From positions 1 to 55,237 of the IMG/VR virus record IMGVR_UViG_3300021964_000087: a DNA stretch of 55,237 bases. One strand, 5' to 3'. Under the pieces are notes generated by a model. That model saw nothing but the letters and a program-made list of their open reading frames with translations. It did not search any database and was not told where the DNA came from. A program made the position numbers and the translations under genes. The stretch is from a virus (taxonomy: Duplodnaviria; Caudoviricetes). Each line of letters begins with the position of its first letter. The first letter of the stretch is position 1. This document shows positions 188-39,747 of this stretch, piece by piece.

Positions 188-397
188 TTAAATTTTTAGA
201 TCTGCACAAATTTCTATTTGTGTAACGGTTAGTTCTTTTAAATCTCGTTGGCAGTCTACGCCGTGTATTTCGATTGGTTCTAAAACAATATCTGGATCGC
301 CCCAGCGTTCGTCCCACGGTCCGTGCCAAATCAAAAAAGCAAAAACAACTAGAACAACTACAAGTCCCACAGGACTAGGTTGTGGTGCTTTGGCCAT
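188..397 (-). CDS. Small hypothetical membrane protein
   Basis: 69 aa with one hydrophobic stretch (VGLVVVLVVFAFLIW); SD AGGAG upstream. Confidence 0.65.
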   Translation of the reverse strand: MAKAPQPSPVGLVVVLVVFAFLIWHGPWDERWGDPDIVLEPIEIHGVDCQRDLKELTVTQIEICADLKI

Positions 398-408
398 ATT
401 ATAATCTC

Positions 409-573
409 CTAAACGCAGTCGCCTGTGTCTAATAATCTAATATAAACTCCCCGATCGTATTCTTTTTTAGACATCCATTCGCCTTTACTATAAACACAAA
501 AGGTTCCGTCTTGTGCATATGCTTGTTGTCCTTCAAACGGATCGGAAACTTCTTTTACTATAATTTCTTTCAT
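409..573 (-). CDS. Hypothetical protein (start revised to MKEIIVK)
   Basis: The ORF-track start at 609 lies inside a terminator hairpin. An AAGG SD-like site precedes the ATGs at 579/573. Confidence 0.55.
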   Translation of the reverse strand: MKEIIVKEVSDPFEGQQAYAQDGTFCVYSKGEWMSKKEYDRGVYIRLLDTGDCV

Positions 574-594
574 ATTCATTCCTTTTGGGAATTT

Positions 595-625
595 AAAAAA
601 CTGCTCCACCTTGTAGGCAGAGCAG
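595..625 (-). terminator. Rho-independent terminator downstream of pqqA
   Basis: Minus strand CTGCTCTGCCT-ACA-AGGTGGAGCAG followed by TTTTTT. Confidence 0.75.
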
Positions 626-643
626 GTGATACCTAAAACGCTA

Positions 644-715
644 TTACTTGTTCATTACATACATTGTAACTTCAAAGCCAAAGCGCATTTCTTCTGCTGT
701 AGGTTTAGTCCACAT
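644..715 (-). CDS. pqqA: Pyrroloquinoline quinone precursor peptide PqqA (23 aa, MWTKPTAEEMRFGFEVTMYVMNK)
   Basis: Translated by hand; below the ORF-track size cutoff. It has the PqqA pattern MW.KP.....R.GFEVTMY with the E-x-x-x-Y cross-link motif, a strong SD (AAGGAG), a double stop (TAA TAG) and its own terminator. Confidence 0.93.
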   Translation of the reverse strand: MWTKPTAEEMRFGFEVTMYVMNK

Positions 716-823
716 AATGTTTCTCCTTGTTAAGATTAAATTATGTAAACAGTTCACGGGAGAGATGAATCAGGTCCCGCTTGAGTCTACCAAAATAAAA
801 GTGCAACATTTCTGTTACACTCT

Positions 824-862
824 TATTTAATACTATTATAGATTGTTTTTAAGAAAAATCAA
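824..862 (-). promoter_or_regulatory. Tandem promoters for pqqA: sigma70-like (TTGATT-16-TATAAT, 835-862) and late-type TAAATA (824-829)
   Basis: Both motifs are read directly in the intergenic region upstream of pqqA. Confidence 0.6.
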
Positions 863-882
863 TAGTGAAAATCATTAAAACA

Positions 883-1464
883 CTATAAGCCTATATTAAA
901 ACTAATTGCTATTTTTTCTCCGGCTGGTTGAAGTCCATTACCGTGTAGCATATCATTTTTAAAAATTAAAAGAGTTCCGGGTAAGCATTCGAAGGCAATT
1001 TCTTCTGCTGTAAATAAATTTGGATTTTGCATCTGTATTTTGTATTGCTTTGGATCATCATAAAAATGTAAAAAACAATTCTGTGGTGCTTTTACATAGT
1101 ATACTCCTGATAATAAGCAATCTCCGTGATTATGCGGAAAGAGGAAATCATTTTCGTTACTAATATTAAACCACATTTTGTGAAACTTACACTCCTCTAT
1201 CAAATGATGATCATAATCAAGAGTTTTCATAAATTCAATTGAATAATCAAATATAGATTTTGATAGATAATTTAATTTAGGGTCTTTATTAAGTGTATTA
1301 ATAGTTTCTGCTGTTGAGTTAACATTTAGTGTATTTGATCTTTTAGTTTCATGTAATTCACAATAATTTTTTAGAACCTGTTCAGTTTCTGGGAGTTTAT
1401 CTAAGTGTAGATTTGGTATTTGATATACTGGTTTAGGGAATAAAGAATGTAATTTTGGTTCCAT
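883..1464 (-). CDS. 2OG-Fe(II) oxygenase, TIGR02466-like
   Basis: LFPKPVY N-terminus, WFN...PHNH...SGVYYV, G.LLIF...LH, and C-terminal IAISFNI; HxH...H iron triad. Confidence 0.8.
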   Translation of the reverse strand: MEPKLHSLFPKPVYQIPNLHLDKLPETEQVLKNYCELHETKRSNTLNVNSTAETINTLNKDPKLNYLSKSIFDYSIEFMKTLDYDHHLIEECKFHKMWFNISNENDFLFPHNHGDCLLSGVYYVKAPQNCFLHFYDDPKQYKIQMQNPNLFTAEEIAFECLPGTLLIFKNDMLHGNGLQPAGEKIAISFNIGL

Positions 1465-1508
1465 TAATGTTATTTAACACATAAACATTCTGGAACCAAA
1501 GAAAAAGA

Positions 1509-3689
1509 TTAAAAACCGCTAAGTGCTTTAATGCGTTCTAGTTCTTCTAGTTCTTCTGCGCCTTGTTCTTGTGCAGGTGCCATTCTCTCTACAAACTTAC
1601 GAGCAACCTGTTCAGCCTGTTCGCCAAACTTTTTGCCAACCATTGTGCATACGCCTTCTGGACCTTTTGGAAAAGTTCCTGTAGCACTATCATAAAAAGA
1701 TTTAATAAATTCTGCCACGCCTTCTAGTGTGTGTTCTTCACCATCTGATGTCTTAAACTTGGTGCCTTTTTTAGCGCCTTGTGACTTAAGGTCCTGAACT
1801 TTTTTACTGAATTCATTACCTTCAGTTTCTTGGCTTTCCATATCCATAACATCGCCTGCAATATCACCGTGAAACTCTTGACTGTCAATTTCGTGTCTCA
1901 CTTTATCAAAGCCATCTGTTTTAATCTTTTCAATATAGTCTTTGTAAATCATATCTGCATAGGATTCGTCTGGCTCATTGCTACCTGTGATTTCATCTTC
2001 AAGTCGTTTAATGCATTCTTCTTCATCGTTACAGTCTTGAATAATTTCCATTCCTGTAGTAACTGCTAAATCCCAAGCATTACCGCCTTCTGCAACTTCA
2101 ACTGATTCTTCTTTGTTAAGTAATTCTTCTTGATGTTTTTTAAGTTCTTCAATGCTATCAAACTCGCCTGTAATCTCATTGTCTTTAATGCTAAAGAATT
2201 TGCCATCTTTATTAATAGCAGCAAGTCCGTATTTGTTCATACCCATTGACATATCTTCTTGCTGTGGTTCAACTTCGTCTGCTCCAACTGCTGGCTCATC
2301 AACCATGTCGCCAAAATCCAATTGGTCAAGAACGTCAGGAGCATTTTCTTCTACCCAAGCCTTGACCATTGGACGAACGTCCTGTTCTGGCTCTGCCTTC
2401 TTGATGTCCTGTTCTAGTTTTGGATCTTCGATAATGCCTTCTAAACTTGTAATAGCATTTGTGCCATCTACGCCTGCTTGGAATTCCGTGTTTAGTAGTC
2501 CATTCAATTTTTTAATTAGGTCTGCCTTTTCTTCTTCGTCAGCCATTGTTAGAGGTGATTCCTCACCTAGGTTATTAACCCAACTTTCAAAGCCTGATAA
2601 TGGATCTTCTGAAACTTTTTCTTCTGATTGTTCTTCTTCTACTTTACCTGTCATCCCGACTATGTCGTCATAGCCTACACTCTCTTCTTCTTTCATTAAT
2701 CTGTATAATACTGGAAATACTGAAGTTAGGTCTTCCTTAAAGTTCTTAACCGTGAATTTTTCTTTGTATTCTTCCATCACGTCATCTGGAACTTCCATAG
2801 CCTCTGGTGCCTGGAATTCTGTTACATAGTTTTCATAGTGTGCTTGTTTTGATAGTCTAGCAACTCTTTCTCTTAGTCCATCCAATTGTGCCTTGCTGCG
2901 TTCAACGATGTTATTAGTGTCGGAGTTCATTAAATCGTTTCTCACGCAGTAGTTTGTAAAACTCTTTAGTTGTGCAATTTCTTCGCTCATCTTGATGATG
3001 CTTTCGCCGATAGCGTCATATGGTAACCCGCCGTTAGCCACGTGTCTCTGCATTGCTCTTGCACCCGCTAGGTGAATGAAAGGATACTTAAATCTTTCCC
3101 CGTCTTGATTTTCAACGAACAGTGCAGAAATATTTCTACTTCTATCACCTGGTTTTTGTTCAAAGTCATCAGCAAGTTTCTTGCTGTGCTTAATTATTAA
3201 TCTAGTGTCCATTAACTTCTGGAAACTCTGTGTCTTGGTTCCATAAAGATTACTCTCATTCATTACTGCTTCTCCGACGGGTTTTGTTATTGTATCGTTA
3301 TCCGATTGTGGTGTAGAGTGTTGGCTAAGGAACGCATAATCACGCTTATCTAAATTATCCTTTGCAATATCTCTAGTGTCAAACGCTAATAATCTGCGCT
3401 TTGCAAACATTCTTAATTCTTTTAGGAAACCATACCAATTGCCTTTTTGATCTTGATCCATTCCTTCGGTAATACCATTTGAAAAGTAAACCTTCATTGA
3501 ATTGGGTTCTGCTAAACTAATGCTTACATGTCCTATATTCTTGTCATTTTCTGTATAGTCAAAATCAAAGAATCTAGCATTTTCAGGATTGATCGTGATC
3601 TGTCCTGTTGCTTCGCCTAGTTTTAAACCTGTAAATCTACTTCTAATTTTATAGAAAAGATCTGTTGCTATATTATTGGTTGCATCCAT
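1509..3689 (-). CDS. Large acidic hypothetical protein (possible head-associated/internal protein)
   Basis: 726-aa ORF with an E/D-rich C-terminal half, next to the terminase, with a late-promoter motif 7 nt before ATG. Confidence 0.6.
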   Translation of the reverse strand: MDATNNIATDLFYKIRSRFTGLKLGEATGQITINPENARFFDFDYTENDKNIGHVSISLAEPNSMKVYFSNGITEGMDQDQKGNWYGFLKELRMFAKRRLLAFDTRDIAKDNLDKRDYAFLSQHSTPQSDNDTITKPVGEAVMNESNLYGTKTQSFQKLMDTRLIIKHSKKLADDFEQKPGDRSRNISALFVENQDGERFKYPFIHLAGARAMQRHVANGGLPYDAIGESIIKMSEEIAQLKSFTNYCVRNDLMNSDTNNIVERSKAQLDGLRERVARLSKQAHYENYVTEFQAPEAMEVPDDVMEEYKEKFTVKNFKEDLTSVFPVLYRLMKEEESVGYDDIVGMTGKVEEEQSEEKVSEDPLSGFESWVNNLGEESPLTMADEEEKADLIKKLNGLLNTEFQAGVDGTNAITSLEGIIEDPKLEQDIKKAEPEQDVRPMVKAWVEENAPDVLDQLDFGDMVDEPAVGADEVEPQQEDMSMGMNKYGLAAINKDGKFFSIKDNEITGEFDSIEELKKHQEELLNKEESVEVAEGGNAWDLAVTTGMEIIQDCNDEEECIKRLEDEITGSNEPDESYADMIYKDYIEKIKTDGFDKVRHEIDSQEFHGDIAGDVMDMESQETEGNEFSKKVQDLKSQGAKKGTKFKTSDGEEHTLEGVAEFIKSFYDSATGTFPKGPEGVCTMVGKKFGEQAEQVARKFVERMAPAQEQGAEELEELERIKALSGF

Positions 3690-3702
3690 AGTAAAGTATT
3701 TA

Positions 3703-5292
3703 TCAAAAACCGCCCGATACGAATATTGGCATTGGGAACTCGTCTTCTGTCATTCTCTCCGTCATTTTTTCATATATTTTTGGATCCCAATCAGCCAATT
3801 GATTAGCCATCCTTATGATCAATAGGCAAGCACTTACTAAATCGTCGTGTTCACCTGTTTTAGCATTGTAACCAACACCCGTGGCCACAAATGTCTTTAA
3901 TTCCGATATCAGTGGTTTACTGTTTATCTTCATTTTGTTCTTTTCGATTGCGTTTTTAAATCCGCTACATGCTGTAATTTTAGTCTTGTGTGTTGTGTTA
4001 TATCCTTTACGGAATCTTCTTACATGACCTTTTCTAATTGGTTCGCTTAAGAATAATCCGTGAAAGTTTTCTTCGCCGATGTCCTTAATTACAACAAGTG
4101 CTGCTTCACCTATGGAATTATTTTCACAACTGTAATATATTGTTGGGTTAGCATTCCCTCCAGCAACCTGTTCGTCATATATGTATTTTAGAATACTTTT
4201 TAAATGTCTAATCTGTTGTTGCACAGGAGTAAGGTTATGTCTCCATTCTCCCACTTGTTCCATTGAAGGCATTTCAAATATCTGTATTGCGGCATAGTCG
4301 CCGCCTGTTCCTAGACTAGGATCAAGTGCTAACAAATAAGTTGCTTTAGGATTAATTTTCTTATACCAGCGTGTCTGCCCCATATTCTGAATAGGTTCCA
4401 TGCCTTCTAGTTCTGCAAGTTTAACACTGTTGATTAAGGTTTCATCAAAGATCAAGAATTCGCAGTCAAACTCACGACGGAATCTTTCTTCTCCGATCTT
4501 GGCACGTTCTTCCTGTGCCCATGCTTCATCTCTGTCTGGATGTTCTACCCAGGGTGCGAAGAATGGGAAGAAACCATTTGTGCCTACCACATTGTCATTG
4601 CCATACTCGTCAAATTTTTTGTTTGCTTCGGTCCATATCTGTGCAAATTGGTCCTCGTCCGAGTTTGGTGTGCTTGTAACGATTGCCTTACCACCCGTTG
4701 ATAGTGTAGGTGAAAGTGCAGTCCAAAACTCTCGAGCCTTTTCGGGCGGTTGCACGAATGCAAACTCATCACAGTATATTAATGAAAGTGATTTACCACG
4801 TCCAGTATCTTCTGTTGTGGTAGTTGCCTGTATTCTACTGCCATTATCAAACTCAATTGTGTTTCTGTTGTATGTATAAATGCCTGCACGAATAAAGTCT
4901 GGCAAATTCTCATATCCAAATCTATATCTGTTCATAATGTCCTGCGCACCCGTATACTTGTGTGCAGCAATTAGGACCTGTGCTTCAGGAGTAAACATGC
5001 AATACCATAATAGGTATGCAGCAGCACATGTGGTCTTACCCATCTGTCTTGGCAGCATGGCAATTGTGTATCTATGATCGTGGTATGCCCTTAATAGATC
5101 TTCCTGATATCCATAGGGTTCAAATCGCATGCTCCCCTTGGTAGGGTGCTGAATCTTTATGAAGTTTTTTGCAAAATATAACGGACCGTCAACAGGATCC
5201 ATACACTTTTCCAAGTGAGTAAGTTCCTCTATAGTGTATTTTACTTGACTGTGCGCCTTCTTAATTTGGACGCCATCTAAACTCTTTGCCAT
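3703..5292 (-). CDS. Terminase large subunit (T4 gp17-like)
   Basis: Walker A PRQMGKT, Walker B YCDEFAF, motif III TSTPN, FRREFDCEF, and RNase H-like nuclease residues (LALDP...HDDLV). Confidence 0.95.
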   Translation of the reverse strand: MAKSLDGVQIKKAHSQVKYTIEELTHLEKCMDPVDGPLYFAKNFIKIQHPTKGSMRFEPYGYQEDLLRAYHDHRYTIAMLPRQMGKTTCAAAYLLWYCMFTPEAQVLIAAHKYTGAQDIMNRYRFGYENLPDFIRAGIYTYNRNTIEFDNGSRIQATTTTEDTGRGKSLSLIYCDEFAFVQPPEKAREFWTALSPTLSTGGKAIVTSTPNSDEDQFAQIWTEANKKFDEYGNDNVVGTNGFFPFFAPWVEHPDRDEAWAQEERAKIGEERFRREFDCEFLIFDETLINSVKLAELEGMEPIQNMGQTRWYKKINPKATYLLALDPSLGTGGDYAAIQIFEMPSMEQVGEWRHNLTPVQQQIRHLKSILKYIYDEQVAGGNANPTIYYSCENNSIGEAALVVIKDIGEENFHGLFLSEPIRKGHVRRFRKGYNTTHKTKITACSGFKNAIEKNKMKINSKPLISELKTFVATGVGYNAKTGEHDDLVSACLLIIRMANQLADWDPKIYEKMTERMTEDEFPMPIFVSGGF

Positions 5293-7990: not shown

Positions 7991-8587
7991 TTAAAAATTA
8001 TATCCATAAGTTTTAAAATCTAAACTGCATCGATCTTCAACAATTTTTCTTGTTGTTTGATTATAAAACGTTTTATAATGATCGTGTATTGTAACATTGT
8101 TGTTAGGCAATGGATCAAAACAGTTTAACTTTTCTTGTATTATCTTAAAATCTTCATTTATATTTTCCAATCTTAAAATACAATCAATCCTATTAATTTT
8201 TTCTGCCTGAATATCACTTAAAATAGAAGGGTCTGTATCCAGCCATTCTTCAAATGATATTTTATATGTATCTCTAGCCGCCCAGGCTGCTTTATAAGAC
8301 TCTTTTCTTGTAGCACCTTTTTTATATTTTTCAATTCTATCTTCTATTTGCTTAATGTGATAGTTGTATGAACTTACAACTCTTGCAAATGGATTTCTTA
8401 TTATGCAAAATGTAAATCCCATTATATCTCTATTTGTATTCTGTTCCAGTCTTTGGAATGAGCAATGTTTTGCTCCTAATTTGTTACATGTAGTATTTTT
8501 AAATAACCATTTTGTCACACTTGTTCCGCCATTTTTCTTTAAATGAACGAATGTCATTTTTAATGGATGTGTAACTAAAATTGCCAT
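7991..8587 (-). CDS. Sulfotransferase (Sulfotransfer_2-like family)
   Basis: 5'-PSB loop FVHLKKNGGTSV, 3'-PB motif IIRNPFARVVSSY, LRLENINEDF, and C-terminal DF..YGY.F. Confidence 0.8.
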   Translation of the reverse strand: MAILVTHPLKMTFVHLKKNGGTSVTKWLFKNTTCNKLGAKHCSFQRLEQNTNRDIMGFTFCIIRNPFARVVSSYNYHIKQIEDRIEKYKKGATRKESYKAAWAARDTYKISFEEWLDTDPSILSDIQAEKINRIDCILRLENINEDFKIIQEKLNCFDPLPNNNVTIHDHYKTFYNQTTRKIVEDRCSLDFKTYGYNF

Positions 8588-22841: not shown

Positions 22842-22900
22842 TTTATCCTCTATTCAGTATCAACTGATTGATATAAACTACACATATAAATACTTATCAA

Positions 22901-23545
22901 ATGTGCGTGGATGTATTTAAACAAATGGATATAAAAGTATATGATGTAGTAGGATTTCCTCTCGTAGTAATTGATAATTTCTACAGTGAAAAATCTTGTG
23001 ATAGTATCTGGCAAGAATTATGCTTTTTGAATAGCGACGGTAGAAAATTAAAAATGCCAGAAGATACCGGTGGCGCAATACGCGAACAAGAGTCTGAAAC
23101 TATTTCTTTAAAAAAGAACAAAGGTTTAAGACTCGAGGATGCATACGCAGATAGGAATATTTCAAACATTTTTTTCGAAAATAGAAAAATTTTTGATGAA
23201 GAAATTGTTAAGAAATTAGAATCCATCAGTCCAATTTTTAGATATCTGTCATTATCAAATAGTGACGTAACTATTATGCATTATTATGAAAATAATGATT
23301 ACTATCTTGCACACAGGGACGGTGCTGCTATTACAGCCGTAAGTTGGTTTTATAAATTTCCAAAATCATTTAAGGGCGGCAATTTAAAATTTGAAAATGG
23401 GTTATCCATCGAATGTATTCATAATAGGACTGTTATATTTCCATCATTTTTAGAACATTCTGTGGATGAGATTATAATGGATCAAGAAAAAACAAGTAAT
23501 AATTATGGTAGATATTCCTTAACACATATGATTGGAGTTTATTAA
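22901..23545 (+). CDS. 2OG-Fe(II) oxygenase (prolyl-4-hydroxylase-like)
   Basis: YY...DYY.AHRD, FKGGNL.F, IFPS..EHSV, GRYS; full TATAAATA at 22885-22892. Confidence 0.85.
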   Translation: MCVDVFKQMDIKVYDVVGFPLVVIDNFYSEKSCDSIWQELCFLNSDGRKLKMPEDTGGAIREQESETISLKKNKGLRLEDAYADRNISNIFFENRKIFDEEIVKKLESISPIFRYLSLSNSDVTIMHYYENNDYYLAHRDGAAITAVSWFYKFPKSFKGGNLKFENGLSIECIHNRTVIFPSFLEHSVDEIIMDQEKTSNNYGRYSLTHMIGVY

Positions 23546-23560
23546 TGAAAGTGAGGGAAA

Positions 23561-24196
23561 ATGAGTAGAATGATTAATGGAATTTTTCCAGGAAGAATAG
23601 AGCCATCTGTTATGCTGGCTGGTAATATTGCTGTATATGAAAATATATGGCCAAATCCTGAACAAACTATAGAAGCGGCTAATAATGAATGTGCTAATCC
23701 AGAATCGGGAGCATACTGGCGGAGGGCAGAAACACACGGGCAGGGTGCTCATCAAACACACAGGACAAACAAACTTTTAGATATTACACATTTGGCTACT
23801 GTTAATGATAATAAACTTTTACAGAATATTCACAATCAGTTTTACATGTTATTGATGGCAGCCAGTGTTCCGTATGCTGAAAGATGTCAAATTACTGAAA
23901 CTTTATTTCATGAAGGTTATTGTTTGTTAAAATATTCAAACGATCAGGAATATAAACAACATTATGATACTGATACATCGGGTGGTAGAATTATTTCATG
24001 CATATGCTATCTTAATAATGACTTTGAAGGCGGAGAATTAGAATTTCCTAATTTTGATATTAAAATAAAACCACAGCCTGGAATGTTAATTTTATTTCCA
24101 TCAAATTATGCATATACGCACATTGCACACCCTGTAACTTCAGGAAAAAAATATGCATTAGTAACATGGATTAAAGATAGAGACCTTAACGCATGA
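23561..24196 (+). CDS. 2OG-Fe(II) oxygenase (prolyl-4-hydroxylase-like)
   Basis: LLKY...QEYKQHYD, YLNNDFEGGELEF, LFPSNYAYTHIAHPV..G.KY..VTW. Confidence 0.9.
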   Translation: MSRMINGIFPGRIEPSVMLAGNIAVYENIWPNPEQTIEAANNECANPESGAYWRRAETHGQGAHQTHRTNKLLDITHLATVNDNKLLQNIHNQFYMLLMAASVPYAERCQITETLFHEGYCLLKYSNDQEYKQHYDTDTSGGRIISCICYLNNDFEGGELEFPNFDIKIKPQPGMLILFPSNYAYTHIAHPVTSGKKYALVTWIKDRDLNA

Positions 24197-24798
24197 GTTT
24201 CAAAGACAAAAAATACAGCATAGTTAGGTCAGTTATATCCGATGAATTGAGAGATTTTGTTACTCAGTATGCATTGTTTGACGAAATGCAGGATTTTAAC
24301 TTAGAAAAGGGTGATGGTCAGGTTCCGAATGCTCATTCAAAGTATGGAGACCCGGCAATGGAAACCGTTTTATTGAATCTTAAAAACCCCATGGAAGAGA
24401 CTACTGGATTAGAACTACTGCCGACCTATTCATACTACAGGGTATATAGAAAAGGCGATGATTTAAAACCGCACACTGATAGACCTTCTTGCGAAGTGTC
24501 GGCAACACTTTGTTTTAATTATAGTTATGATGATAATGTATACAACTATCCTATCTTTGTGGAGGGTAAAGAAATTATTCTTAAACCAGGAGATATGGTG
24601 GTATACAGAGGGTTAGAATTAAGTCATTGGAGAGAATCAATGAATGTAGGTGCCGATGATTGGCAAGTGCAGGGATTTTTTCATTATGTTGATGCAAATG
24701 GTCCTTATGCGGAGTGGCAAAATGATAAGAGAAACACAGTCGGTGAGCCTAGAGGAACACCTATTTCCAATCAACAAACACACATGGTTTGGAAATAA
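24193..24798 (+). CDS. 2OG-Fe(II) oxygenase-like protein
   Basis: PTYSYYRVY..GD.LKPHTDRPSCEVS, PGD.VVYRG....HWRE, Q.FFHYV; HxD...H triad. Confidence 0.8.
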   Translation: MSFKDKKYSIVRSVISDELRDFVTQYALFDEMQDFNLEKGDGQVPNAHSKYGDPAMETVLLNLKNPMEETTGLELLPTYSYYRVYRKGDDLKPHTDRPSCEVSATLCFNYSYDDNVYNYPIFVEGKEIILKPGDMVVYRGLELSHWRESMNVGADDWQVQGFFHYVDANGPYAEWQNDKRNTVGEPRGTPISNQQTHMVWK

Positions 24799-25484
24799 TG
24801 TCTATCAACATCTATTGGTGCTGTATCGAAAAGGAATGGATGAGAGCAGAACCTCCTATGCCTATTTTAAATTCTTTCTCTGAAGAAAATAAGTATACAG
24901 AATCTGGTATACTTAGATGTCCGGCAATGAGAGATGAAATGAACAATACGTTTTCGTTAAGTTCCATATATGATTATAATTTTACAATATCAGAAAATGA
25001 TGTTTCAAGTCCTATGTATGATCAAGAATTTTTCAATAAGCACATTATAATTAGATCTGTCAAGGAACGCATTTTTAGTTTTAGCCAAGAAATAATATTT
25101 TTTACGGATGAGCCTTCCCTAATGATGAGTGCAAACTTGCACCCTTATCTAGAAAATAATGAAATAACCAAAAGATGTATTTCATTGCCTGGAAAATTTG
25201 ACATAGGTAAATGGTTTAGAACCGTAGAATACGGATTCAAATTAAATGAAAATTTTAATGAATTTAAAATTAATATGGGTGATGTTTATCAATACATTAC
25301 CTTCCATACAAACGAAAAGATTGTTTTTAAACAATTTTATAAAACAGACAAGATTCAACAAATGCTTTATGATACTAGAGATATCAGATCAAATCGAAAA
25401 AACTTTGTTTTACTTGATTGGTTTTATAAAAAATTTAGATTCAAAAATTTTGTTCTTGATGAAATAAAGAAAAATTTAGTATGA
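24798..25484 (+). CDS. Hypothetical protein within the oxygenase operon (start revised to MSINIYW)
   Basis: TAATG coupling with the upstream gene; RCPA and PGKFDIGKWFR motifs; no clear HxD triad. Confidence 0.65.
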   Translation: MSINIYWCCIEKEWMRAEPPMPILNSFSEENKYTESGILRCPAMRDEMNNTFSLSSIYDYNFTISENDVSSPMYDQEFFNKHIIIRSVKERIFSFSQEIIFFTDEPSLMMSANLHPYLENNEITKRCISLPGKFDIGKWFRTVEYGFKLNENFNEFKINMGDVYQYITFHTNEKIVFKQFYKTDKIQQMLYDTRDIRSNRKNFVLLDWFYKKFRFKNFVLDEIKKNLV

Positions 25485-26110
25485 TGGAAATGATAGACCT
25501 TTTTTCTACAAAAATATACAAAACAAAAATTGATAAAAATTTGTATAATTATGATGAACTTTTGTCAATTATTGAAGAAAATTATAAAATTCAACCAAGT
25601 AGGTTGGACGTAACAGATTTTACTGCTAATACTCATAACTACTATGAGGGATGGAATAACGAAAAATTTAAAAAATTAAATTTAGAATATCTATCAAAAA
25701 TTTATTTTAAAGAAACTAAAAAATTCTTTACTTACTATAAAATTGAAGAGAATGTAGATTGGTCAATGTCGATTGTAAACCTAAGCGCAAGTAAAAAACA
25801 TCAAGGTATTGCTATACACGACCATCTTCCTGCCTTCTATTCAACTGTTCATTATCTAAGATTAACACAAGAGCAGCAAAAAATAAGATTTTTTAATCCG
25901 TTAAGCATAGGAAAATATACAGGGTCTTTATATAATCTTGACAAGATAAAAAACCATATTGATAATTCAAACCTATATCAATCTTGGACTTTTGATGTAG
26001 AAGAAGATGATATGATATTTTTTCCATCATATTTAGAGCATGATGTAGTTTATGGTGAAACTGATGATTTGCGAATTTCTATATCTAATAATATTTATTT
26101 GGAACAATAA
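25481..26110 (+). CDS. 2OG-Fe(II) oxygenase, TIGR02466-like
   Basis: LFSTKIY, HDH...YSTVHYL, FFNP, EDDMIFFPSYLEHDV, RISIS.N. Confidence 0.78.
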   Translation: MMEMIDLFSTKIYKTKIDKNLYNYDELLSIIEENYKIQPSRLDVTDFTANTHNYYEGWNNEKFKKLNLEYLSKIYFKETKKFFTYYKIEENVDWSMSIVNLSASKKHQGIAIHDHLPAFYSTVHYLRLTQEQQKIRFFNPLSIGKYTGSLYNLDKIKNHIDNSNLYQSWTFDVEEDDMIFFPSYLEHDVVYGETDDLRISISNNIYLEQ

Positions 26111-27567
26111 TGAAAGAAATAAAGAAAATTTTAATTGTAGGTGGCGGAACTGCTGGATTAATTACGGCACTAATTCTTAAGAAGCATTTAAACATGCAGG
26201 TTGATGTTGTATATTCCAAAGATATAGGAATTATTGGTGTAGGTGAAGGATCAACCGAACACTTCAGGGATTTCTTACAATTCGTAGGCATCGATCATTA
26301 CGAATTACTTAAACAGTGTGATGCTACATACAAGTCAGGAATAATGTTTAAGGATTGGGGTTCAAAGGATTATCTACATAATGTGGGCGAACCCTTTAAC
26401 AATAGAGTGGGCCAGTATCCTATGGTTTATGCTAATCAAATAGCCAAAGGAGATACAATAGTAACTTCTCCGTTACTATGGAAAAATAAAATTAACAAAT
26501 GGTTTATCAACCAGAGAGAAGAGTTTCCATTTAATCAATTTCATTTTAACACACATAAATTAAACGACTTTCTAATAACCATTGCAAAGGACATGGGCGT
26601 TGGTCTTTATGATGATAAAATCGTAGATGTTATATTAGATGAGTCTGGAGATATAGCATATCTACAAGGAGAAAAAACTCTACATAATTATGACTTCTAT
26701 ATTGATTCAACAGGGTTTAGAAGAATATTAATGAATAAACTAGGTGCTAGGTGGGAGTCTTTTGGAAAATATCTAAAAATGAAGTCTGCAATTACATTTC
26801 CTACAGGAGACACTGAAGAATATAATTTATGGACGCTGGCAAAGGCCATGAAAAATGGATGGATGTTTAGGATCCCTGTTTGGGGTAGGCATGGTAATGG
26901 TTACATATATGACAGTGATTATACCGATGCTGAACAGGCAAAAAAAGAAGTAGAAGAATACTTTGGACATGATATTGAGGTAGGCAAGGAATTTAATTTT
27001 GATCCAGGTAAATTAGATAGAGCATGGATAAGAAATTGTGTTGCCGTAGGACTTAGTGGCAGTTTTGTCGAACCGTTAGAGGCAACTAGTATCGGTTCTT
27101 CCATAGTCCAAAGTTTTATGCTGATGCATAAAATTGTTAATTATGATCAAAACACAATTGACAAATATAATAAATCGTTTGATGACATTCTATACAACAT
27201 AAGAGATTTCATTATTCTACATTATATAAATGATAGAAGAGATTCTGATTTCTGGAAAGACATTAGCAAATTAGAACTTCCAGAGTCGCTATTAAAAAAT
27301 ATAGAAACTTGGAAAAACAAATTACCGCTTGATGAAGATTTTAATACGGTATCAGATTATGTTCTATTTAAGGCTGCAAACTTTACCGTAGTTATGGAAG
27401 GATTAAATCTCTTCAACCGAGAAAACATAATTAAAGAATATAATTCATATCAATATCAATTTAAGGATTATGCCGTAGGAGATTTAAGGCATCATTTTGA
27501 GTTTAATAAATCAATAACAACTATAGGTCACAAAGAATATATTTCCATAATAAGAAAATATTTTTAA
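26110..27567 (+). CDS. Flavin-dependent halogenase, tryptophan 7-halogenase (PrnA)-like
   Basis: GGGTAG FAD motif, IGVGEGS, catalytic-Lys region DATYK.GI.F, IDSTGF, GWMFRIP (variant of WxWxIP), FVEPLEATS. Confidence 0.88.
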   Translation: MKEIKKILIVGGGTAGLITALILKKHLNMQVDVVYSKDIGIIGVGEGSTEHFRDFLQFVGIDHYELLKQCDATYKSGIMFKDWGSKDYLHNVGEPFNNRVGQYPMVYANQIAKGDTIVTSPLLWKNKINKWFINQREEFPFNQFHFNTHKLNDFLITIAKDMGVGLYDDKIVDVILDESGDIAYLQGEKTLHNYDFYIDSTGFRRILMNKLGARWESFGKYLKMKSAITFPTGDTEEYNLWTLAKAMKNGWMFRIPVWGRHGNGYIYDSDYTDAEQAKKEVEEYFGHDIEVGKEFNFDPGKLDRAWIRNCVAVGLSGSFVEPLEATSIGSSIVQSFMLMHKIVNYDQNTIDKYNKSFDDILYNIRDFIILHYINDRRDSDFWKDISKLELPESLLKNIETWKNKLPLDEDFNTVSDYVLFKAANFTVVMEGLNLFNRENIIKEYNSYQYQFKDYAVGDLRHHFEFNKSITTIGHKEYISIIRKYF

Positions 27568-28031
27568 ATATCTTTAGTAGGAAAAATAAAAGTATTTGGG
27601 TCAGGTTTAGGATCATTATATACCCAGGCTTTATCATCAGGAATCCATGTGTTATAAACCTGTAAATCCATACCTAATTCCTTAGCTCTCTTGAATACTT
27701 TTTTCTGAGCACCTTGCCCGTAATAGGTTTCTATTTTTTTAGAATCGACTGAAACTCCATCCACTACCCTTGGTGCATTTCTATTATCATAGCCTGTAAT
27801 TACCATATAAAATTCTGCATAAGGTTGCCAGGCTGCATACACTCCAGCACCGCCCATTCCAATGGATATTACTTCCCAAATATCAACATCTTCTACCGTC
27901 ATTTCTCTTTTGTAGTCCCAGTCGGTTTTTGGTGGTAAAACTACTTTATCCGAATCCATCCAATTTGAATCCCATAATTCGTCCTGATCCACTCTGGTTA
28001 GTATATTGTATGTTGTTTTAAATTGAGGCAT
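27564..28031 (-). CDS. Hypothetical protein, paralogue of 21982..22323
   Basis: Shared motifs listed for 21982..22323; Trp/Asp-rich N-terminal half. Confidence 0.7.
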   Translation of the reverse strand: MPQFKTTYNILTRVDQDELWDSNWMDSDKVVLPPKTDWDYKREMTVEDVDIWEVISIGMGGAGVYAAWQPYAEFYMVITGYDNRNAPRVVDGVSVDSKKIETYYGQGAQKKVFKRAKELGMDLQVYNTWIPDDKAWVYNDPKPDPNTFIFPTKDI

Positions 28032-28102
28032 TTTAAATCCAGTTCGTTATATATGTTTATAGTTGGTCTATAAATACTTTAAATTTATTTATCAGGAAAC
28101 AC

Positions 28103-29695
28103 ATGCTCAAAAATTTAAATAAGATAGTCATAGTAGGAGGCGGTAGTGCAGGATGGATGACTGCTTCCATACTAATAAAGTTTTTTCCAAATTATGATAT
28201 TTCATTGATAGAAAGCCCCGATTATCCTACCGTAGGAGTGGGAGAAAGCACGTTGCTTGGAATACGAAATTACGCAAATTTTCTAGAAATTGATGAAAAA
28301 GATTTCATGTCAAAAACAGATGCTAGTTATAAAATGAGCATTAAATTTACGGATTTTTATGAAAAAAATGACGGTGGATTTCACTATCCTTTTGGGTTTC
28401 CTCATCTAGAGGGAACAAATAGAGGCATATATGATTGGTTTATTAAGAAAGCACTTTATCCTGATACCCCTAATAATGATTTTGCAAGATATTTTTTCCC
28501 ATCAGCAGCGTTATACGAACAGAATAAATTTAGTAACAATTTAGATAACAAATTCTTAGGATGGGATCATCAGCATCATACATCCTATCACTTTGATGCT
28601 ACTAAATTTGGTAATTGGCTTAGAGATAACTATTCAATTCCTAGAGGAGTAAGATTAATTAAATCTACCGTTATTGAGTCAATTGTAGGTAACGATGGAA
28701 TAGAAAAATTAATTCTATCTAACGGTGAATCAATCAGTGCTGATCTATTTGTGGATTGCACAGGGTTTAAGAGTTTGCTATTAGGTAAAGCACTGCAAAC
28801 TAAGTTTAATGATTTTTCTCACATGCTTCCTAACAATAGAGCTTGGGCAACTAGGATACCATATAAGAATCAAGATGAAGAACTAGAACCTTTTACAAAT
28901 TGCACAGCACTAGGGAATGGTTGGGTATGGAACATTCCCAGTTGGTCAAGACTAGGAACGGGTTATGTTTACAGTGATAACTTTATCGACCCAGAAGATG
29001 CTAAAGAAGAATTTAAACAGCATCTAATGTCAGATAAAATGATTCATCCTAGATCGCAACAAGAAGTCGACTCGCTTGAATTTAAGGATATTCCCATGCG
29101 TGTGGGAATACACGACGAGTTGTTTGTGAAAAATGTTGTTGCTATTGGGCTGAGTGCTGGATTTATAGAACCCTTAGAATCGAACGGTTTGTTCAGCGTT
29201 CATAGTTTTCTAGATAAACTGATTAAGGTATTGCTTTCAGGATCAGTAAATCAATTTGATAGAGATTGTTTTAATGCTGCATGCAAAGGACAGTTTCAAA
29301 ATTTTGCTGATTTTGTTGCCATGCACTATGCATTTAGTAAAAGAAACGATACCGAATATTGGAAGGCAAATAACAATAGAGTATATGATCGAGAAATGAT
29401 AAATTTAAAACACAGTCATAACGGAGTGGGATTTTTTGATTATATGAATACCAAAAACTTCAGTAAGGATTCTTTAAGCACAGGCCTTGGATTAATATGG
29501 ATATCCACTGGAATGAATCATCATCTTGTTGATAGCATTGATGTATTAAATTGGCAATATGAGGAAGATGCTAATTTCAAAGAAGATTTTGCGGAGTTTT
29601 TTAATGATCGTCACGAACTCATAAAAAAAGTGTGGGAAGAAGCAAAACTCCAACCCACACTATACGAATATCTTAAGAAAAATATCTATAACTAA
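28103..29695 (+). CDS. Flavin-dependent halogenase, tryptophan 7-halogenase (PrnA)-like
   Basis: GGGSAGW, VGVGEST, DASYK.SI.F, YHFDA, VDCTGF, GWVWNIP, GFIEPLESNG; TATAAATA at 28069-28076. Confidence 0.92.
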   Translation: MLKNLNKIVIVGGGSAGWMTASILIKFFPNYDISLIESPDYPTVGVGESTLLGIRNYANFLEIDEKDFMSKTDASYKMSIKFTDFYEKNDGGFHYPFGFPHLEGTNRGIYDWFIKKALYPDTPNNDFARYFFPSAALYEQNKFSNNLDNKFLGWDHQHHTSYHFDATKFGNWLRDNYSIPRGVRLIKSTVIESIVGNDGIEKLILSNGESISADLFVDCTGFKSLLLGKALQTKFNDFSHMLPNNRAWATRIPYKNQDEELEPFTNCTALGNGWVWNIPSWSRLGTGYVYSDNFIDPEDAKEEFKQHLMSDKMIHPRSQQEVDSLEFKDIPMRVGIHDELFVKNVVAIGLSAGFIEPLESNGLFSVHSFLDKLIKVLLSGSVNQFDRDCFNAACKGQFQNFADFVAMHYAFSKRNDTEYWKANNNRVYDREMINLKHSHNGVGFFDYMNTKNFSKDSLSTGLGLIWISTGMNHHLVDSIDVLNWQYEEDANFKEDFAEFFNDRHELIKKVWEEAKLQPTLYEYLKKNIYN

Positions 29696-31967: not shown

Positions 31968-34900
31968 TTATGTCAAAAAGTAGTTAAACGCTATTGGAAG
32001 CCCTGTAACTCCTCCTTGGAAATTAAATTTAGCCTGCATTTTAATTATATCGCCGGTTGTGGTTGTAATTTGATTATTGGCGATATAAACAAATCCAGCA
32101 GTTACGCTGTTAACATTAAGTGATGCACCACCGCCACCAATTTGTGAACTAATGTATGCCTTAATTGCTCTCTGCGTAGGAACAACACTATCACTGTTTG
32201 CAGTAAAGAACGGATCTGTTGAGAATTCAGTAATACTTGCTGAGCCTCCACCTAGTGTTACTTCACCCAGTGTAAGTTCCTGTAGTCCTGAAATATTAAA
32301 TGCATCAGCATTCAATGTTGCAACACCAGTTGATTGTTCAATTGTAAACAGATCACCAACTCTGAAGTTACCATCTTGGTCAGTTGTGGTGTAGAATACT
32401 CTACCTCCATCGCTATCTCTAGTTTCTTGAGCCTGGACTGGAACCTGTGTAGGTGTTCCTGGATAGTTAGTTTCAGTAAAGTTACCAGTTCCGATGTCTA
32501 GGAAATCGTGTCCTGTTAATCTAACCTGAGAATATCTAATCCTAGTAGTAACTGAAGTTCCGTCTGGTGGACTATCAAATACGGTTACGTTAGGTGCTAC
32601 CTGTAGGAATGCAGTGTATGATCCGTCATACTCGCCCAACAATGTAAGAACCTGAACCAATTTATAAACTGTGTTTGGTTTGTGTCCAAACACAACATTT
32701 GAACCAGGAACTGGTCTTTCTGTTAATCTTCTTACCGCAATAAACTGTCCTTCTTGTTGGAATTCTGCATACCCGTCTCCGGTATCTAAGTCAGCACTCG
32801 CACTAATGTAGCCTGTTCCTCTATTAGTCCAACTAGGTTGTGACAATGCTCCATTACCAATTTTAACTTCGGTAGGTGCTTCAAATGTATTATTCGGATC
32901 AGTAATAGTTATAGTTGGTGCTGTCGAATATCCTGAACCAGGTTCAAGCAGTCTAATTGCAAATATTTTATTTTCAGCAACTGCTGCTCTTGCTCTTGTT
33001 GTTGCACCAGCAAGTGTTTGGCTAGCCACCGTTCCAGAAGTGCCTGCTATTGATACAAAAGATCCTGATTGATTTGGATTTCCGTGAACACTGGCTACAA
33101 AACCGTTTGCGCTGGTGCTCATTGTTCTAGAAGTCCATAAAATACCGTCTTCTGATGTAGCACCCGTATTATCTGTATCAGTAACAGCAAGGAATACACC
33201 CTGTCCGTATGTTACATGAGTCCAGTCCTTGGATGCAGGAAGTGTTGTTTCAGTCCAAGTTGCACCGTAGTCTATGCTTATCGCTGCTTTAGTTCCCGTT
33301 GTATTAGAAACTGCAACAAATCTATTGTTACCCCACGCAACTGATGTCCAATCTGAACTTGACAATCCTGAGCCTGATGACCATGTATCACCATCATCAT
33401 CTGAGTATGCAACTGCTGTTCCGCCTGTTGCTATTACTACCCATCTTCCGCCACCGTATGCAACATCTGACCAAGTTGCTGAACTTGGTAGTGCTGTTGT
33501 TGCAGTCCATGTTACTCCGCCGTCTTCTGTAATTGCTGCATTAGTAGTTCCGCCTTCAATGGCCATCCATCTTCCGTCACCGTATGCCACTGCGTTCCAT
33601 GATCCTGTGCTTGGCAAGTTGCCGCCCGCAGTCCATGTTTCGCCGCCATCTTCCGAATAAGCAGTATCGTCAATTCCAGAACCGCCTGCAATCGCTATTA
33701 ATCTTGCTGCAATTGGTTTTGCTTCACCTGCTGTTGTTGTAAATGTTCCAGGACCCGTTGCTGTAAAGAATGTTCCTGCAAGGATTGAAGAAGACCCGAT
33801 CGATAACCAAGGTGTGTCGCCACTGTCTGTTATTTCGTAGGATCTACCAGTCACAAAATTTGTAGCAGTTTCTGTTATTGTTAGTTTTCCACCAGCAATA
33901 CTGGTCCAAGTAGTTGATACTGGAAGTGTTGTAACTGCTGACCAACTATTGCCGTTACCGCTGTAGTTTACAGTGTTACCACTTGCACTCGGAAGAGCAA
34001 GGAAATTTCCGCCTGCTGCATAACCAGCAATATCAACTGCTTGTATTTCTCCATTAACACTGTTTACTGAAGTAATAGTAATTGTTAAATCATTTGCAGT
34101 AGTTGCTCCGCCTAGCGATGTTCCTAAAATCGTTATAGTTTCAAGTCTAGAATAACCAGATCCGCCATCCTTAATCTGAACAACATACTTTGTTCCTTTT
34201 CTGAATATATCAAAAGTAGCATTTTCTCCGTCGCCTGTATATGTGCCAGGAATAGTATTTAAATAACTTGTGTATATAGGAGCATATGCAATATCTGCCC
34301 AAGTAGTTGTTGTTGTCAACGACCTAGCAGTCGAACTAAATGCTGGTGCGGTAAACGAAATCGCTGGTTCAATTGTATATGTTGTTGATGCATCCGGGGA
34401 AGCAATAGTTGTTCCTGGAATAAAGTGATCAAACCCGCTTGAACCGTCTGATTCTTTAACTATACCTGCAATCTTAGTTCCTGAATTGTATGAATCGATT
34501 ATACCATACTGTCCAACACCTGCGCCGCCTGTAAGTATTAATTTCATTCCTATGTATGCTAGACTAGTTTCCGAATCTGTTGCAGCAATGGTGACCGAAC
34601 TTGATGTTCCACCCTGTGCTGTATTTGAATTTGTGATATATCCAAACCCACCATAGTTTCCATCTGCTTCAGGAGCAGTTGTTGAATCGTCAACGTTATC
34701 AAGTAAATCAACAGTAAAGACTGCGCCGTCTCTAAATTCATCAGCAGTTGTAGCCGCATTAGCGCCTGCCCCAAATATTCCCCATGTAGCCTCAGTATAA
34801 TCTGATCCTGCATTGGTAAACTCAAGGCTCACAACCTCGTTGGCTCCGTCAGTAACTGTGTTGCCTATCGTTGCTTCGTATTGGAATTTGTTATCAACTA

Positions 34901-37900
34901 TAGCAGTTCCTGGAGTTTCATCTGCGTCAAAGCCTTCAGCAACAGAACCAAAGTCACCGTATGAGTTGTTACCGTTGGTTCCTCTAATTCTACCACCACT
35001 TTCTGCTAGATATCCAACATGTGAGTAGTATGTAAACACTGATACAAGTTCTGCTCTACCATTGTTAAGAATGTGAGCGCCAATACCGTCACTAATAACC
35101 TGTGTAAAGTCGTTTGATACGATCGAATCATTGCCGCCGGCATGTAGCGATCCGTCAATCTTTTGGCCAGTTGCTGCGTAACCAAACGTTGTATTGTTTT
35201 GAACGTAAGGTGAACGTGCAATAATCCAAGTTCTAAAGTCATCTGGTCCCCAACCTGGATCCAATGAGCAGTATGCACCTGCGGATACTCTTGAAGTTCC
35301 GTATTCGTTTTCTGGAAGGACATCACCGTTCAATCCATCCAAGGTTTGGTTTCTAATACCCGTTCCGTTTCTTAGATAATACATGTCTTCTTCTTGTGAT
35401 CCAAGGACTGCATTAGCATAGTATCTTGAAACATATCTTGATTTATAATTAGAAAGCCATTTAATATCCCATTTAAGTGCATCAATATATGTGTCTACGT
35501 CTCTCTGGCATAGAGTTTCGTTGTATGTAATTTCAACTTCACAACTACCGCTCGCTGTTGTTAGCGTCAACGGTGTATTTGAATTTCTAGTTTCAGAAAT
35601 TGTAAATGTCGTTGAACTTTTTACATCCTGAACATAGTAGGTAGTTCCTGCTGTAATTCCACCAAATGTAGTTCCTGTAAATTCAATCGCTGCATCTCTA
35701 ATTAACCAGTTTGTATTTCCGCTAACCGTAATTATATTAGTTGACGCTGTTGTATTTGTAACAGTGTCGCTGTATTCGTTATCGATGTATGCAGACATTT
35801 CTGCTTTTAGGAATGCTCTATTCTGCTCTAATTTTAATGAAGCATAATCTCTAACTCTTAAATCTGTTTGACACACGCTTCCTTCATTTGTTGATCCGTA
35901 GAATATAGTATCAAGTTTGTCCATTAGAGAAGCAACTCTTGCAGCCGCTGTTGCATTACTATTTAGATATGTTGCAGTATCGCCAGCAATTACTGTTGCT
36001 AGATATTGATATGCTGCTCTTGTTGCTGCCTTTTGTCCTAACGTATACACATCACTTGATGTGCTTCTCAAGTATGATAACCCTGCAATGTGTGTTGCAA
36101 AATCAGTTGATGCATTTCCCGACCCGTCACCTAACATAAAGTCAAACATTACTGCTTCAAGAATTAGTCTTGTATCTCTCTTACACTTGGCTTCGTTGTA
36201 TTCTAATGTAGGATATTCAGTTGAGATATAAGTATCAACCAGTGTTACAAGGGCCTCTTGCTGCGCATCTAAGGTCTCTGCAGCGGTGATAAGTGCTGTT
36301 GTTGAACTTACAGCATTCGTTACTGCTGGTAAATCTTCTTTGTGTGCAGGTATGCTTAACCCAGAACCGTCAACCAGCGTAAATGTAGATCCACCAAATG
36401 TTTCACTAATGGTCATTTCGTCAGTTGCTGGAACAGTAATTACCCAATATTTTTCATTTGCTACTAGATTTTTATCTGATTCAAGCGGAGTTATTGTATC
36501 ACCAACTTGTAGTCCGTGAGCTGCTGCTGTTGAAATAACGTTTGATGCAATATCTGAGATAGTAATACTCGGTAAATCTGCACCTGTTGAATCGCCAGCA
36601 AGTGTATTAAGAATAATATCAAAATTATTTTCTACAAACGTTTCAGCACCTGTGCCTGCATCTGTATTGAAATACTGCGAAACAGTTGATTGTAGTTCTG
36701 AAATATTTGTGTTTCTTACTACTTGGCTTAAAATACTTTTTAAATGTCTGTATGCTGCAATAGTTTGAGGAACCGTTGCTTCTGATAATGCCCTAACTGA
36801 ACTAGTTCCGTCCCAATATGCTCTTGCAGCATTTAAAGTTTGGAAATGTCCGCCATATGTTAGGTCATAACTTAATGCATCAATGATATATCCAACATCC
36901 TGTTTACATTTTGTCTTACTATATTTTAGTGTAGGATAGTTGTTGGTAATATATTGAACAATTTCTTCCTGGAAGAATTTTTTGTTTAGTGTAATATTCT
37001 TTCTCGCAGTTCCGTAGCCAACTAGATATGAACTGTTATATCCTGTAGGATCAACTAGTGTTGTTGTATGTTTTGTTCCAAGTCTAAAATCAACCTGTTC
37101 CTTCATAACATTTACAAGTTTAGCAACTACATCTCCAGTTTCACTATCGTCAGCCAATGGCCATGTTTGATCCTGTGCAGTTGTATTTCCTGAAGAAGGA
37201 GTTACGGTTGTTCCAGCAACCACTTTAGACGCAATGTCTGCAAAGTGATTAAATGTTCCAACAGTATAAAATGCATCAGTAATGTCCGTAGTTCTATCAC
37301 TTGCTGCTGCTGCCCTAACATTTGTAGATCTAACTTCGTCACCTAATATACATGTTTCTGCCGGAACAATAATTGGTAATACTTCTCTGTATTGTCCTGC
37401 TTTAACATTAATTAACACATTAGGAACTAATCTTTCTGGTATAGCACTAGTATCACCTGCTGTGATTGTGTCAGTAACAATTTTCATTAGTGCTGTAATA
37501 GTAGTCGTTACACCTGCTTCTGATGTGTAATCTGTATCAATGTATTGTGCTGCAACAGCAGATGAGTCACTACCGTCTTGGTAAGCAACTGCTGGTGCTT
37601 CGTTTGCTAAAACATTACCAATAATTGTTTGTAAATATGTGTAGGCTGCAACTGACTGTTCTGCTTCTGCTGCTAGACCTGCTCCGGCATAAACTTTATC
37701 TTCTGATGCGTCTGAAAATTCTCCGTCAGCACTAAAACCATTTACAAAAGAAAGTGCCGCTGCCCTTACTTTAAGATTTCCGCCATGGCCGATATCCCAA
37801 ATAAGTCTATCGATGATAAATCCAACGTCTCTTTCACACTTGTATTCATCATAATCAAATCCTGACCAAATTCCAGATCCTGCTGTAACCTGTGCTTCAA

Positions 37901-39692: not shown

Positions 39693-39747
39693 TGTCGTTT
39701 CCGCTTGTTATGTTATATTTATCAATACGTTGCATTGTTACCTACCT

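Follow-up and report, generated by a model that had tools for sequence, protein, structure and literature searches.

A stand-alone pqqA gene on a fragment of a jumbo T4-like phage, with a probable part in the cofactor supply of methylotrophic hosts

What might a large phage do with a gene for PqqA, the ribosomal peptide from which pyrroloquinoline quinone (PQQ) is made? The question is raised by the IMG/VR virus record IMGVR_UViG_3300021964_000087, a contig of 55,237 nucleotides that was analysed over its whole length and is called the window here. On its minus strand, at positions 644-715, lies an open reading frame (ORF) of 23 codons. This ORF is a phage-encoded pqqA gene under purifying selection. 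Judged from sequence comparison, it probably (at roughly 0.7) encodes a functional precursor that would supply host PQQ synthesis in a jumbo myovirus infecting Methylophilaceae.

A phage-encoded pqqA gene under purifying selection

644-715, minus strand: pqqA ORF of 23 codons plus stop (coding part 647-715, stop codon 644-646, ATG at 715)

The sequence and translation of this ORF agree with an earlier sequence-only reading of the DNA, which had called its product, MWTKPTAEEMRFGFEVTMYVMNK (23 residues), PqqA and had proposed a search with the PqqA hidden Markov model. That search exceeds both curated cut-offs. The Pfam profile PqqA (PF08042) is matched in full (positions 1-19 of 19) at 40.8 bits, its cut-off being 21.1, and the NCBIfam equivalog TIGR02107 scores 38.8 bits against a cut-off of 20, over positions 1-21 of 21. 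The length of the peptide is inside the PqqA size range of about 20-40 residues, a W-x-K-P leader is visible, and residues E15-V-T-M-Y19 form the Glu-x-x-x-Tyr cross-link motif. The Glu and Tyr of this motif are reportedly the residues that become cross-linked, as Barr and colleagues are said to have found in 2016. Linkage to pqqBCDE is lacking at the window locus, which is not decisive for membership of the PqqA family because most copies in the host family are themselves unlinked to pqqBCDE.

The window is a fragment of a jumbo T4-like myovirus. It encodes the terminase large subunit (TerL), a tail sheath of 1139 residues, a major head protein, a prohead protease, a baseplate protein, a T4 gp15-like sheath stabiliser and tail fibres, and the earlier claim that the gene sits on a phage is thereby borne out. 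The nearest nucleotide kin of the window TerL belong to the PA5oct group, Pseudomonas phages of ~287 kb (64% identity). The record is a linear viral contig of 55 kb that CheckV rates as 16% complete, and a close relative of 114 kb is rated as 32% complete; by arithmetic, these two values point to a jumbo genome of ~350 kb. At the locus, a host-type metabolic gene stands inside a bona fide viral genome with viral genes on its flanks. Its maintenance by selection, as for a viral auxiliary metabolic gene (AMG), is seen in a ratio of nonsynonymous to synonymous differences (pN/pS) of 0.15 and in synteny in 10 of 11 close relatives.

The selection estimate comes from a survey of IMG/VR. A back-translated pattern of the PqqA core finds at least 120 contigs, and all 120 matches lie within intact PqqA ORFs of 23-31 residues. 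A looser pattern adds at least 56 further contigs (56/56 PqqA ORFs), which makes at least 176 contigs with pqqA in all. The 118 viral genes of 23 codons comprise 106 different nucleotide sequences, and pooled Nei-Gojobori estimates give a pS of 0.57 and a pN of 0.085, hence the ratio of 0.15; cellular genes give 0.20. Where the search pattern left codons free, pN/pS is 0.30 (codons 2-11) and 0.18 (codons 20-23), with pS at 0.43-0.81. A 4-mer resembling a Shine-Dalgarno (SD) sequence lies upstream of every one of the 118 viral genes and of 75 of the 77 cellular 23-codon genes. Terminator-like hairpins follow pqqA in 76 of 174 viral and 97 of 123 cellular cases, compared with 1-2 after shuffling. 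The number and direction of pqqA transfers are not resolvable from 69 nucleotides with saturated synonymous sites.

Lineage and regulatory cassette

The neighbours of the gene allow its history within the phage lineage to be followed:

3703-5292, minus strand: TerL, the anchor for finding relatives
1509-3689, minus strand: virion structural protein of 726 residues, with a cargo hotspot that holds pqqA downstream of the gene
883-1464, minus strand: 2OG-Fe(II) oxygenase, a variable cargo gene that adjoins the pqqA cassette on its upstream side

Relatives were assessed among the best 80 of 409 IMG/VR matches to TerL. Of the 20 loci whose TerL is at least 84% identical, 11 extend 2.6 kb or more downstream, and 10 of these 11 carry pqqA, placed 2.4-3.0 kb past TerL as in the window. 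No pqqA is found in the 16 assessable loci (of 20) with TerL 72-80% identical, nor in the 30 assessable loci (of 40) with TerL 61-66% identical. This distribution over TerL classes marks pqqA as the cargo of one sub-clade, held in a variable hotspot behind the 726-residue virion gene. The 2OG-Fe(II) oxygenase upstream is itself variable and is missing here in several relatives; a contig of one relative, from an RNA library, joins window positions 873 and 1508 and skips the oxygenase region.

Around pqqA, an alignment of the window with nine relatives outlines a compact cassette, listed here in the direction of reading:

868-877, minus strand: block TAATGATTTT, invariant alignment columns upstream of the -35 region
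835-862, minus strand: sigma70-like promoter TTGATT-16 nt-TATAAT (10/12 matches)
824-831, minus strand: A/T box resembling a T4 late promoter (6/8 in the window, 7/8 in most relatives; conserved in the alignment)
756-780, minus strand: leader hairpin GCGGGA ... TCCCGT, within a leader of about 110 nt
723-728, minus strand: SD sequence AAGGAG, 7 nt before the ATG, kept in the relatives' alignment
595-625, minus strand: intrinsic terminator with an 11-bp stem (625..601), a 3-nt loop, then T6

The strong SD sequence and the gene's own terminator, both named by the sequence-only reading, are present. The terminator folds at -18.9 kcal/mol (z = -3.12), a value equalled by 1 of 200 shuffles, and the region holds 1 terminator-like site against 0.4 expected. 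The -35 region is invariant in all 10 aligned sequences, and TATAAT is kept at the same spacing in 6 of them, the other four having a 10-nt deletion. The late-type promoter of the earlier reading is weakly borne out. The A/T box is conserved in the alignment and matches at 6/8 positions in the window and 7/8 in most relatives. Exact copies of TATAAATA, which we take to be the T4 late promoter consensus, are absent near pqqA, and across the window 3 are found against 6.0 expected, so there is no enrichment. The block TAATGATTTT is likewise no window-wide motif (14 matches at one mismatch or fewer against 14.5 expected).

In the 6-bp core of the leader hairpin, 3 pairs are invariant and 2 pairs are changed on both sides, a modest support drawn from 6 sequences. 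The leader motif occurs in 9 of 11 close relatives and in 3 of 176 other IMG/VR pqqA genes (one of them a relative's own contig), and it is found in none of 129 cellular pqqA genes and none of 6 pqqA genes of phage-collection records. Because the motif is nearly confined to close relatives, the regulatory region is the phage lineage's own and did not arrive together with pqqA. A search of window positions 300-1200 against Rfam returns no family, the best model being a Bacteroides small RNA at 21 bits against a threshold of 174.8. The leader, hairpin and TAATGATTTT block are also present in loci L313 and L318-L324.

pqqA in other phages, in the host family and in print

A tblastn search of the window peptide against viral genomes, which the sequence-only reading had also proposed, matches 12 of 50,697 phage records. 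Nine are cultured phages, namely Venkman, MEP301, MEP401, MEP402, P19250A and four Melnitz genomes, with 77-91% peptide identity. The remaining matches are one uncultured spring-water phage and, at E = 0.3, two contigs labelled 'Acinetobacter phage MD-2021a'. All 9 cultured Methylophilales or Methylophilaceae phage records that surfaced in the searches carry pqqA; MEP431-434, Venkman EXVC038S and HIM624-A, known from taxonomy names, are not among them. The gene falls in an unannotated gap in Venkman, P19250A (intact, KX815270.1 28085-28153), MEP301 and MEP402, and under a 'hypothetical protein' on the opposite strand in Melnitz (MZ577097.1 76140-76205) and the spring-water phage (MW202481.1 2119-2187). 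In Venkman and MEP301 it is antisense to all its neighbours, and in the T4-like Melnitz it lies among structural genes and tRNAs. Apart from pqqA, MEP402 has nothing in common at the nucleotide level with Venkman, MEP301, P19250A or Melnitz.

These genes resemble the window gene in having an intact ORF with an ATG and an SD-like motif (6/6 inspected) in genomes without pqqB-E. The carriers, in contrast, are unrelated to the window phage (small siphovirus-like, Zobellviridae, Kyanoviridae), their pqqA has other neighbourhoods, and none has the window's leader.

The enzymes of the pathway were sought with PqqB, PqqC, PqqD and PqqE queries taken from a streamlined Methylophilaceae genome. None is found in 127 viral sequences (120 from IMG/VR, six phage records and the window; 1.1 Mb), in agreement with the earlier claim that the window lacks pqqB-E, and the same queries recover PqqB in 46 of 120 cellular pqqA loci among the matches listed. 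Against all phage records, true homologues occur in the two Acinetobacter contigs only, and no Methylophilales phage matched; other matches are generic relatives, 21-25% identical. PQQ-dependent alcohol dehydrogenase is found neither in the window nor in five records of close relatives. A radical-SAM gene of one relative was considered as PqqE and rejected, scoring 26.5 bits against a cut-off of 381. Since the record is a linear fragment, 16% complete, the lack of pqqB-E in the window says little alone, but because the cultured phage genomes are complete, pqqA without its enzymes is a real and repeated state. The earlier claim that the phage supplies only the substrate thus fits the window and the complete genomes of unrelated pqqA phages, and is unprovable for this phage with ~84% of its genome missing.

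The two Acinetobacter records are a case of their own: both hold a complete pqqABCDE operon (CAKLQF020000010.1 108210-111419 and CAKLQH020000055.1 419-3628). Either the phage bin of a metagenome took in host DNA, or a phage carries the entire pathway.

By local gene content, the 127 viral loci fall into 34 Louvain communities, with the window as a singleton. Single-linkage clustering of the contexts was dropped, as it chained 120 of the 127 loci together, and family content and Louvain communities were used instead. Context proteins that seemed to be shared with 21 cellular pqqA loci were for the most part spurious, coming from over-long ORFs that include pqqA or its opposite strand; the real sharing consists of a GroES, a peroxiredoxin and the cellular flank of L043, an IMG/VR contig discussed below. 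A peroxiredoxin (AhpC-like) or GroES-like gene, named from sequence reading, lies within 4 kb of pqqA in L030, L127 and L038. The SoxYZ-like gene of L043 also follows pqqA in two cellular loci, L206 and L225.

Which host does the peptide point to? The cellular set was built by a core-pattern scan with one genome per species and holds 130 peptides among the matches listed, sorted by hand from depositors' record titles; the counts in this paragraph share that scope. The core motif is not diagnostic, being found in Methylophilaceae, Methylococcales, Methylophaga and others. The C-terminal 15 residues of the window peptide, however, recur in 44 of the 130 peptides, 41 of them labelled Methylophilaceae and 3 vaguely labelled, and in 0 of 42 peptides from other named taxa. 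At least 19 of 23 residues are as in the window in 49 peptides labelled Methylophilaceae, 5 vaguely labelled and none otherwise named. Across the peptides compared, then, the full-length peptide is diagnostic of a Methylophilaceae subtype, and the likeness to Methylophilaceae PqqA that the sequence-only reading had named is real and specific. The host of the window phage is accordingly predicted to be a member of the Methylophilaceae, a methylotroph of the OM43, LD28 or Methylotenera kind.

The cellular PqqA of this family has the same length as the window peptide, a Glu-x3-Tyr core and the ...YVMNK tail, and its commonest forms share 20-21 of 23 residues with it; window residues 6 and 8 (Thr and Glu) differ from these forms. 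Stand-alone host copies are also like the window gene in being monocistronic, with an SD sequence, often a terminator, and no linkage to pqqBCDE. Unlike them, the window gene is encoded by a virus, and its promoter and structured leader are found upstream of 0 of 129 cellular copies. All 61 Methylophilaceae genomes carry pqqA, in 1-12 places (median 5, hand count), with at least 2 places in 58 of them and three even in genomes of 1.2-1.3 Mb. The available part of PMC4109929 likewise gives 3-12 pqqA copies against a single pqqBCDEFG. In streamlined Methylophilaceae genomes, pqqA does not adjoin pqqBCDE, from which it follows that pqqA works in trans. A host lacking pqqBCDE had been named by the sequence-only reading as fatal to its proposal; PqqE exceeds its cut-off in 60 of the 61 genomes of this candidate host family.

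Viral pqqA as such is already published, and the window gene is not a first. That it might have been noted before was a caveat of the sequence-only reading, and it does appear in the accessible text of two papers, PMC7678222 and PMC13188868. The former (2020) describes a Lake Baikal T4-like Methylophilaceae virus population, VP_266, with PqqA together with methanol dehydrogenase and radical-SAM genes; the latter, a 2026 study of reservoir sediment, names viral pqqA, pqqD and pqqE among phosphate-cycling genes. As far as the accessible text of PMC7678222 goes, VP_266 is like the window in having pqqA on a large T4-like virus, a predicted Methylophilaceae host and the same proposed role, with a guanine-plus-cytosine (GC) content of about 35% against 31-44% in the window; the likeness is one of description, not of sequence. 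By the same text, the Baikal viruses have methanol dehydrogenase and radical-SAM genes, whereas the records of the window and its five relatives are without a PQQ-dependent alcohol dehydrogenase. It also states that P19250A has none of these methylotrophy AMGs, which the pqqA of P19250A contradicts, and the published statement needs correction.

In full-text literature searches, no paper joins pqqA, phage and OM43; pqqA, phage and Methylophilaceae meet only in the Baikal paper, and pqqA as an AMG only in that paper and in PMC13188868. Pyrroloquinoline quinone and Methylophilales phages occur together only in the Melnitz paper and preprint, with PQQ as a medium additive, and the main texts on MEP301, the MEP401/402 lineage and Venkman contain neither 'pqq' nor 'pyrroloquinoline'. 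What is apparently unreported is the presence of pqqA in every surfaced cultured Methylophilales phage record, its stand-alone state in complete genomes and its lineage-specific cassette; its spread under purifying selection over at least 176 IMG/VR contigs likewise counts as new. Nine public cultured-phage genomes are without annotation for the pqqA that they carry.

A possible analogy is the psbA gene of cyanophages. Phage pqqA is like psbA in providing one rapidly consumed part of a host energy-harvesting system while the host supplies the rest; PsbA, however, is a protein subunit, whereas PqqA is a ribosomal peptide sacrificed for a small-molecule cofactor. The odds are about even that pqqA is a counterpart of psbA, a signature AMG of Methylophilaceae phages that was recruited by, or exchanged among, no fewer than five phage types unrelated to one another (jumbo myovirus, T4-like Kyanoviridae, Zobellviridae and two siphovirus-like groups), is always without pqqB-E, and has been overlooked because ORFs of 23 codons fall below the limits of gene callers. 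If so, the supply of a sacrificial peptide, and not of enzymes, would limit PQQ and energy in infected methylotrophs, and pqqA could readily serve to identify the hosts of methylotroph viruses in metagenomes. In lakes as well as coastal seas, OM43 and LD28 are abundant methanol consumers, and in some viromes hardly any phages outnumber those of OM43 and LD28, according to the available part of PMC8163748. Viral infection would directly shape methanol turnover if phages sustain the PQQ supply. The peptide subtype offers a simple host-family marker for viral contigs, and cultured phage-host pairs make the substrate-supply hypothesis directly testable.

Proposed precursor supply, its rivals and the rest of the window

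In the proposed mechanism, the phage would, during infection, transcribe pqqA separately, in a short unit equipped with its own promoter, a structured leader, a strong SD sequence and a terminator. Host PqqD and PqqE would receive the phage peptide and cross-link Glu15 to Tyr19, and the cross-linked peptide would pass to a host protease, PqqB and PqqC, with one PQQ made per peptide consumed. Supply of the consumable only may in this way sustain PQQ, the periplasmic PQQ-dependent methanol dehydrogenase and energy while host transcription declines. We infer expression during infection, processing by host enzymes, and an effect on PQQ or methanol oxidation. Substrate supply is favoured because the reactive core is that of host PqqA, because the host family multiplies only pqqA, and because phages are repeatedly pqqA-only. 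It is favoured further because stand-alone pqqA copies are the most highly transcribed at peak PQQ synthesis, according to the accessible text of PMC9851590.

Several observations weigh against this reading. The close relative L308, with a TerL 94% identical, has an unrelated segment of 2.1 kb in place of pqqA, and this other cargo at the site means that pqqA is dispensable. About 84% of the window phage genome is missing from the record, and that part could hold pqqB-E or a methanol dehydrogenase, as in the Baikal virus. The sigma70-like motif of the sequence-only reading is present at 862..835 on the minus strand, with its -35 region invariant in relatives, but the 600-nt region holds 2 such sites against 2.3 expected from shuffles, so that the promoter alone does not rise above chance. 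One RNA library (0.06 of words) yields contigs of relatives only, mostly 90-95% alike, over 22 of 30 bins including the pqqA bin. These contigs show loose ends at the borders of the pqqA ORF. Because contigs are no measure of transcription, and because hosts and other phages have a conserved pqqA too, the library speaks neither for nor against transcription of this gene. In the wider survey, an annotated phage family lies within 4 kb of pqqA at 73 of the 120 first-scan loci, the eight families being an exonuclease, the Sak annealing protein, two endolysins, a major head protein, a primase/helicase, a DNA polymerase subunit and a replication initiator. At least 1 of the 120 loci is a cellular flank: behind the pqqA of L043 (a 72-kb contig; locus 748-4482) come a gene for a SoxYZ-like carrier, rpoZ and the gene of a CHASE2 adenylate/guanylate cyclase, cellular DNA that probably flanked a provirus and is now part of a 'viral' contig. 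Finally, the accessible text of PMC9851590 does not settle whether PQQ output is limited by PqqA or rather by PqqB, PqqC or PqqE.

The alternative that survives best, though an unlikely one, keeps the PQQ supply and gives it another purpose: the PQQ would serve other PQQ enzymes or act as a redox or antioxidant molecule. In the available text of PMC13188868, viral pqqA, pqqD and pqqE are counted among the genes of phosphate solubilisation, with glucose dehydrogenase as the route. Among the matches listed, 16 of the 120 viral peptides in the first scan, together with several in the second, belong to subtypes other than that of Methylophilaceae, and some pqqA carriers for that reason probably infect other PQQ users. 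The window peptide, by contrast, is of the Methylophilaceae subtype, and in that family of methylotrophs, obligate or nearly so, methanol dehydrogenase is the chief PQQ enzyme (PMC4109929, in the part available).

It is a little less likely again that pqqA is a passive passenger of no use to the phage, whether a multi-copy host gene gained by recombination or what is left of an attachment or recombination site. Such an origin would suit a gene that sits in a variable cargo hotspot, is missing from one close relative and has many dispersed host copies as possible recombination targets. It fits poorly with a pN/pS of 0.15-0.30 at near-saturated synonymous divergence, with at least 176 viral ORFs that are all intact, and with an SD-like motif in 118 of 118 genes. 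Nor does it fit the place of pqqA among structural genes and tRNAs in the T4-like Melnitz, its being the sole nucleotide stretch common to otherwise unrelated Methylophilales phages, or a lineage-specific promoter and leader that are not host-derived.

An improbable alternative casts the peptide as a decoy or regulator that binds host PqqD/PqqE or a sensor and blocks or re-tunes PQQ synthesis. Its support is indirect: the N-terminal leader is more variable than the core (pN/pS 0.30 vs 0.03). Loss of reactive residues would be expected of a decoy, but the Glu and Tyr that become cross-linked, like the rest of the core, do not differ from host PqqA, and many viral peptides, the two commonest forms among them, have identical cellular counterparts. 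An artefact in which host DNA was mis-joined to a viral contig is most improbable, for although the pqqA locus of L043 is a cellular flank, the window cassette has phage genes of its own strand on both sides, its synteny recurs in 10 independent relatives' contigs, and pqqA is present in sequenced phage isolates. Selection, synteny and intact reactive residues together disfavour the passenger, the decoy and the artefact.

Elsewhere in the window, two giant tail-fibre genes of 2574 and 1874 residues, both matching phrog_9851, are adjacent at 31968-45372 on the minus strand. A gene at 7991-8587 on the minus strand gives a weak match (E = 4e-7) to the galactose-3-O-sulfotransferase-like phage family phrog_3347. 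On the plus strand, a low-GC island at 22901-29695 has a GC fraction of 0.31-0.33 against about 0.38-0.44 elsewhere, and exact TATAAATA motifs stand at its edges, at 22885 and 28069. It holds three 2OG-Fe(II) oxygenases (22901-23545, 23561-24196 and 25481-26110) and two genes of the flavin-dependent tryptophan-halogenase family (26110-27567 at 308 bits and 28103-29695 at 349 bits). The island may be a cassette for the modification of small molecules or peptides carried by the phage.

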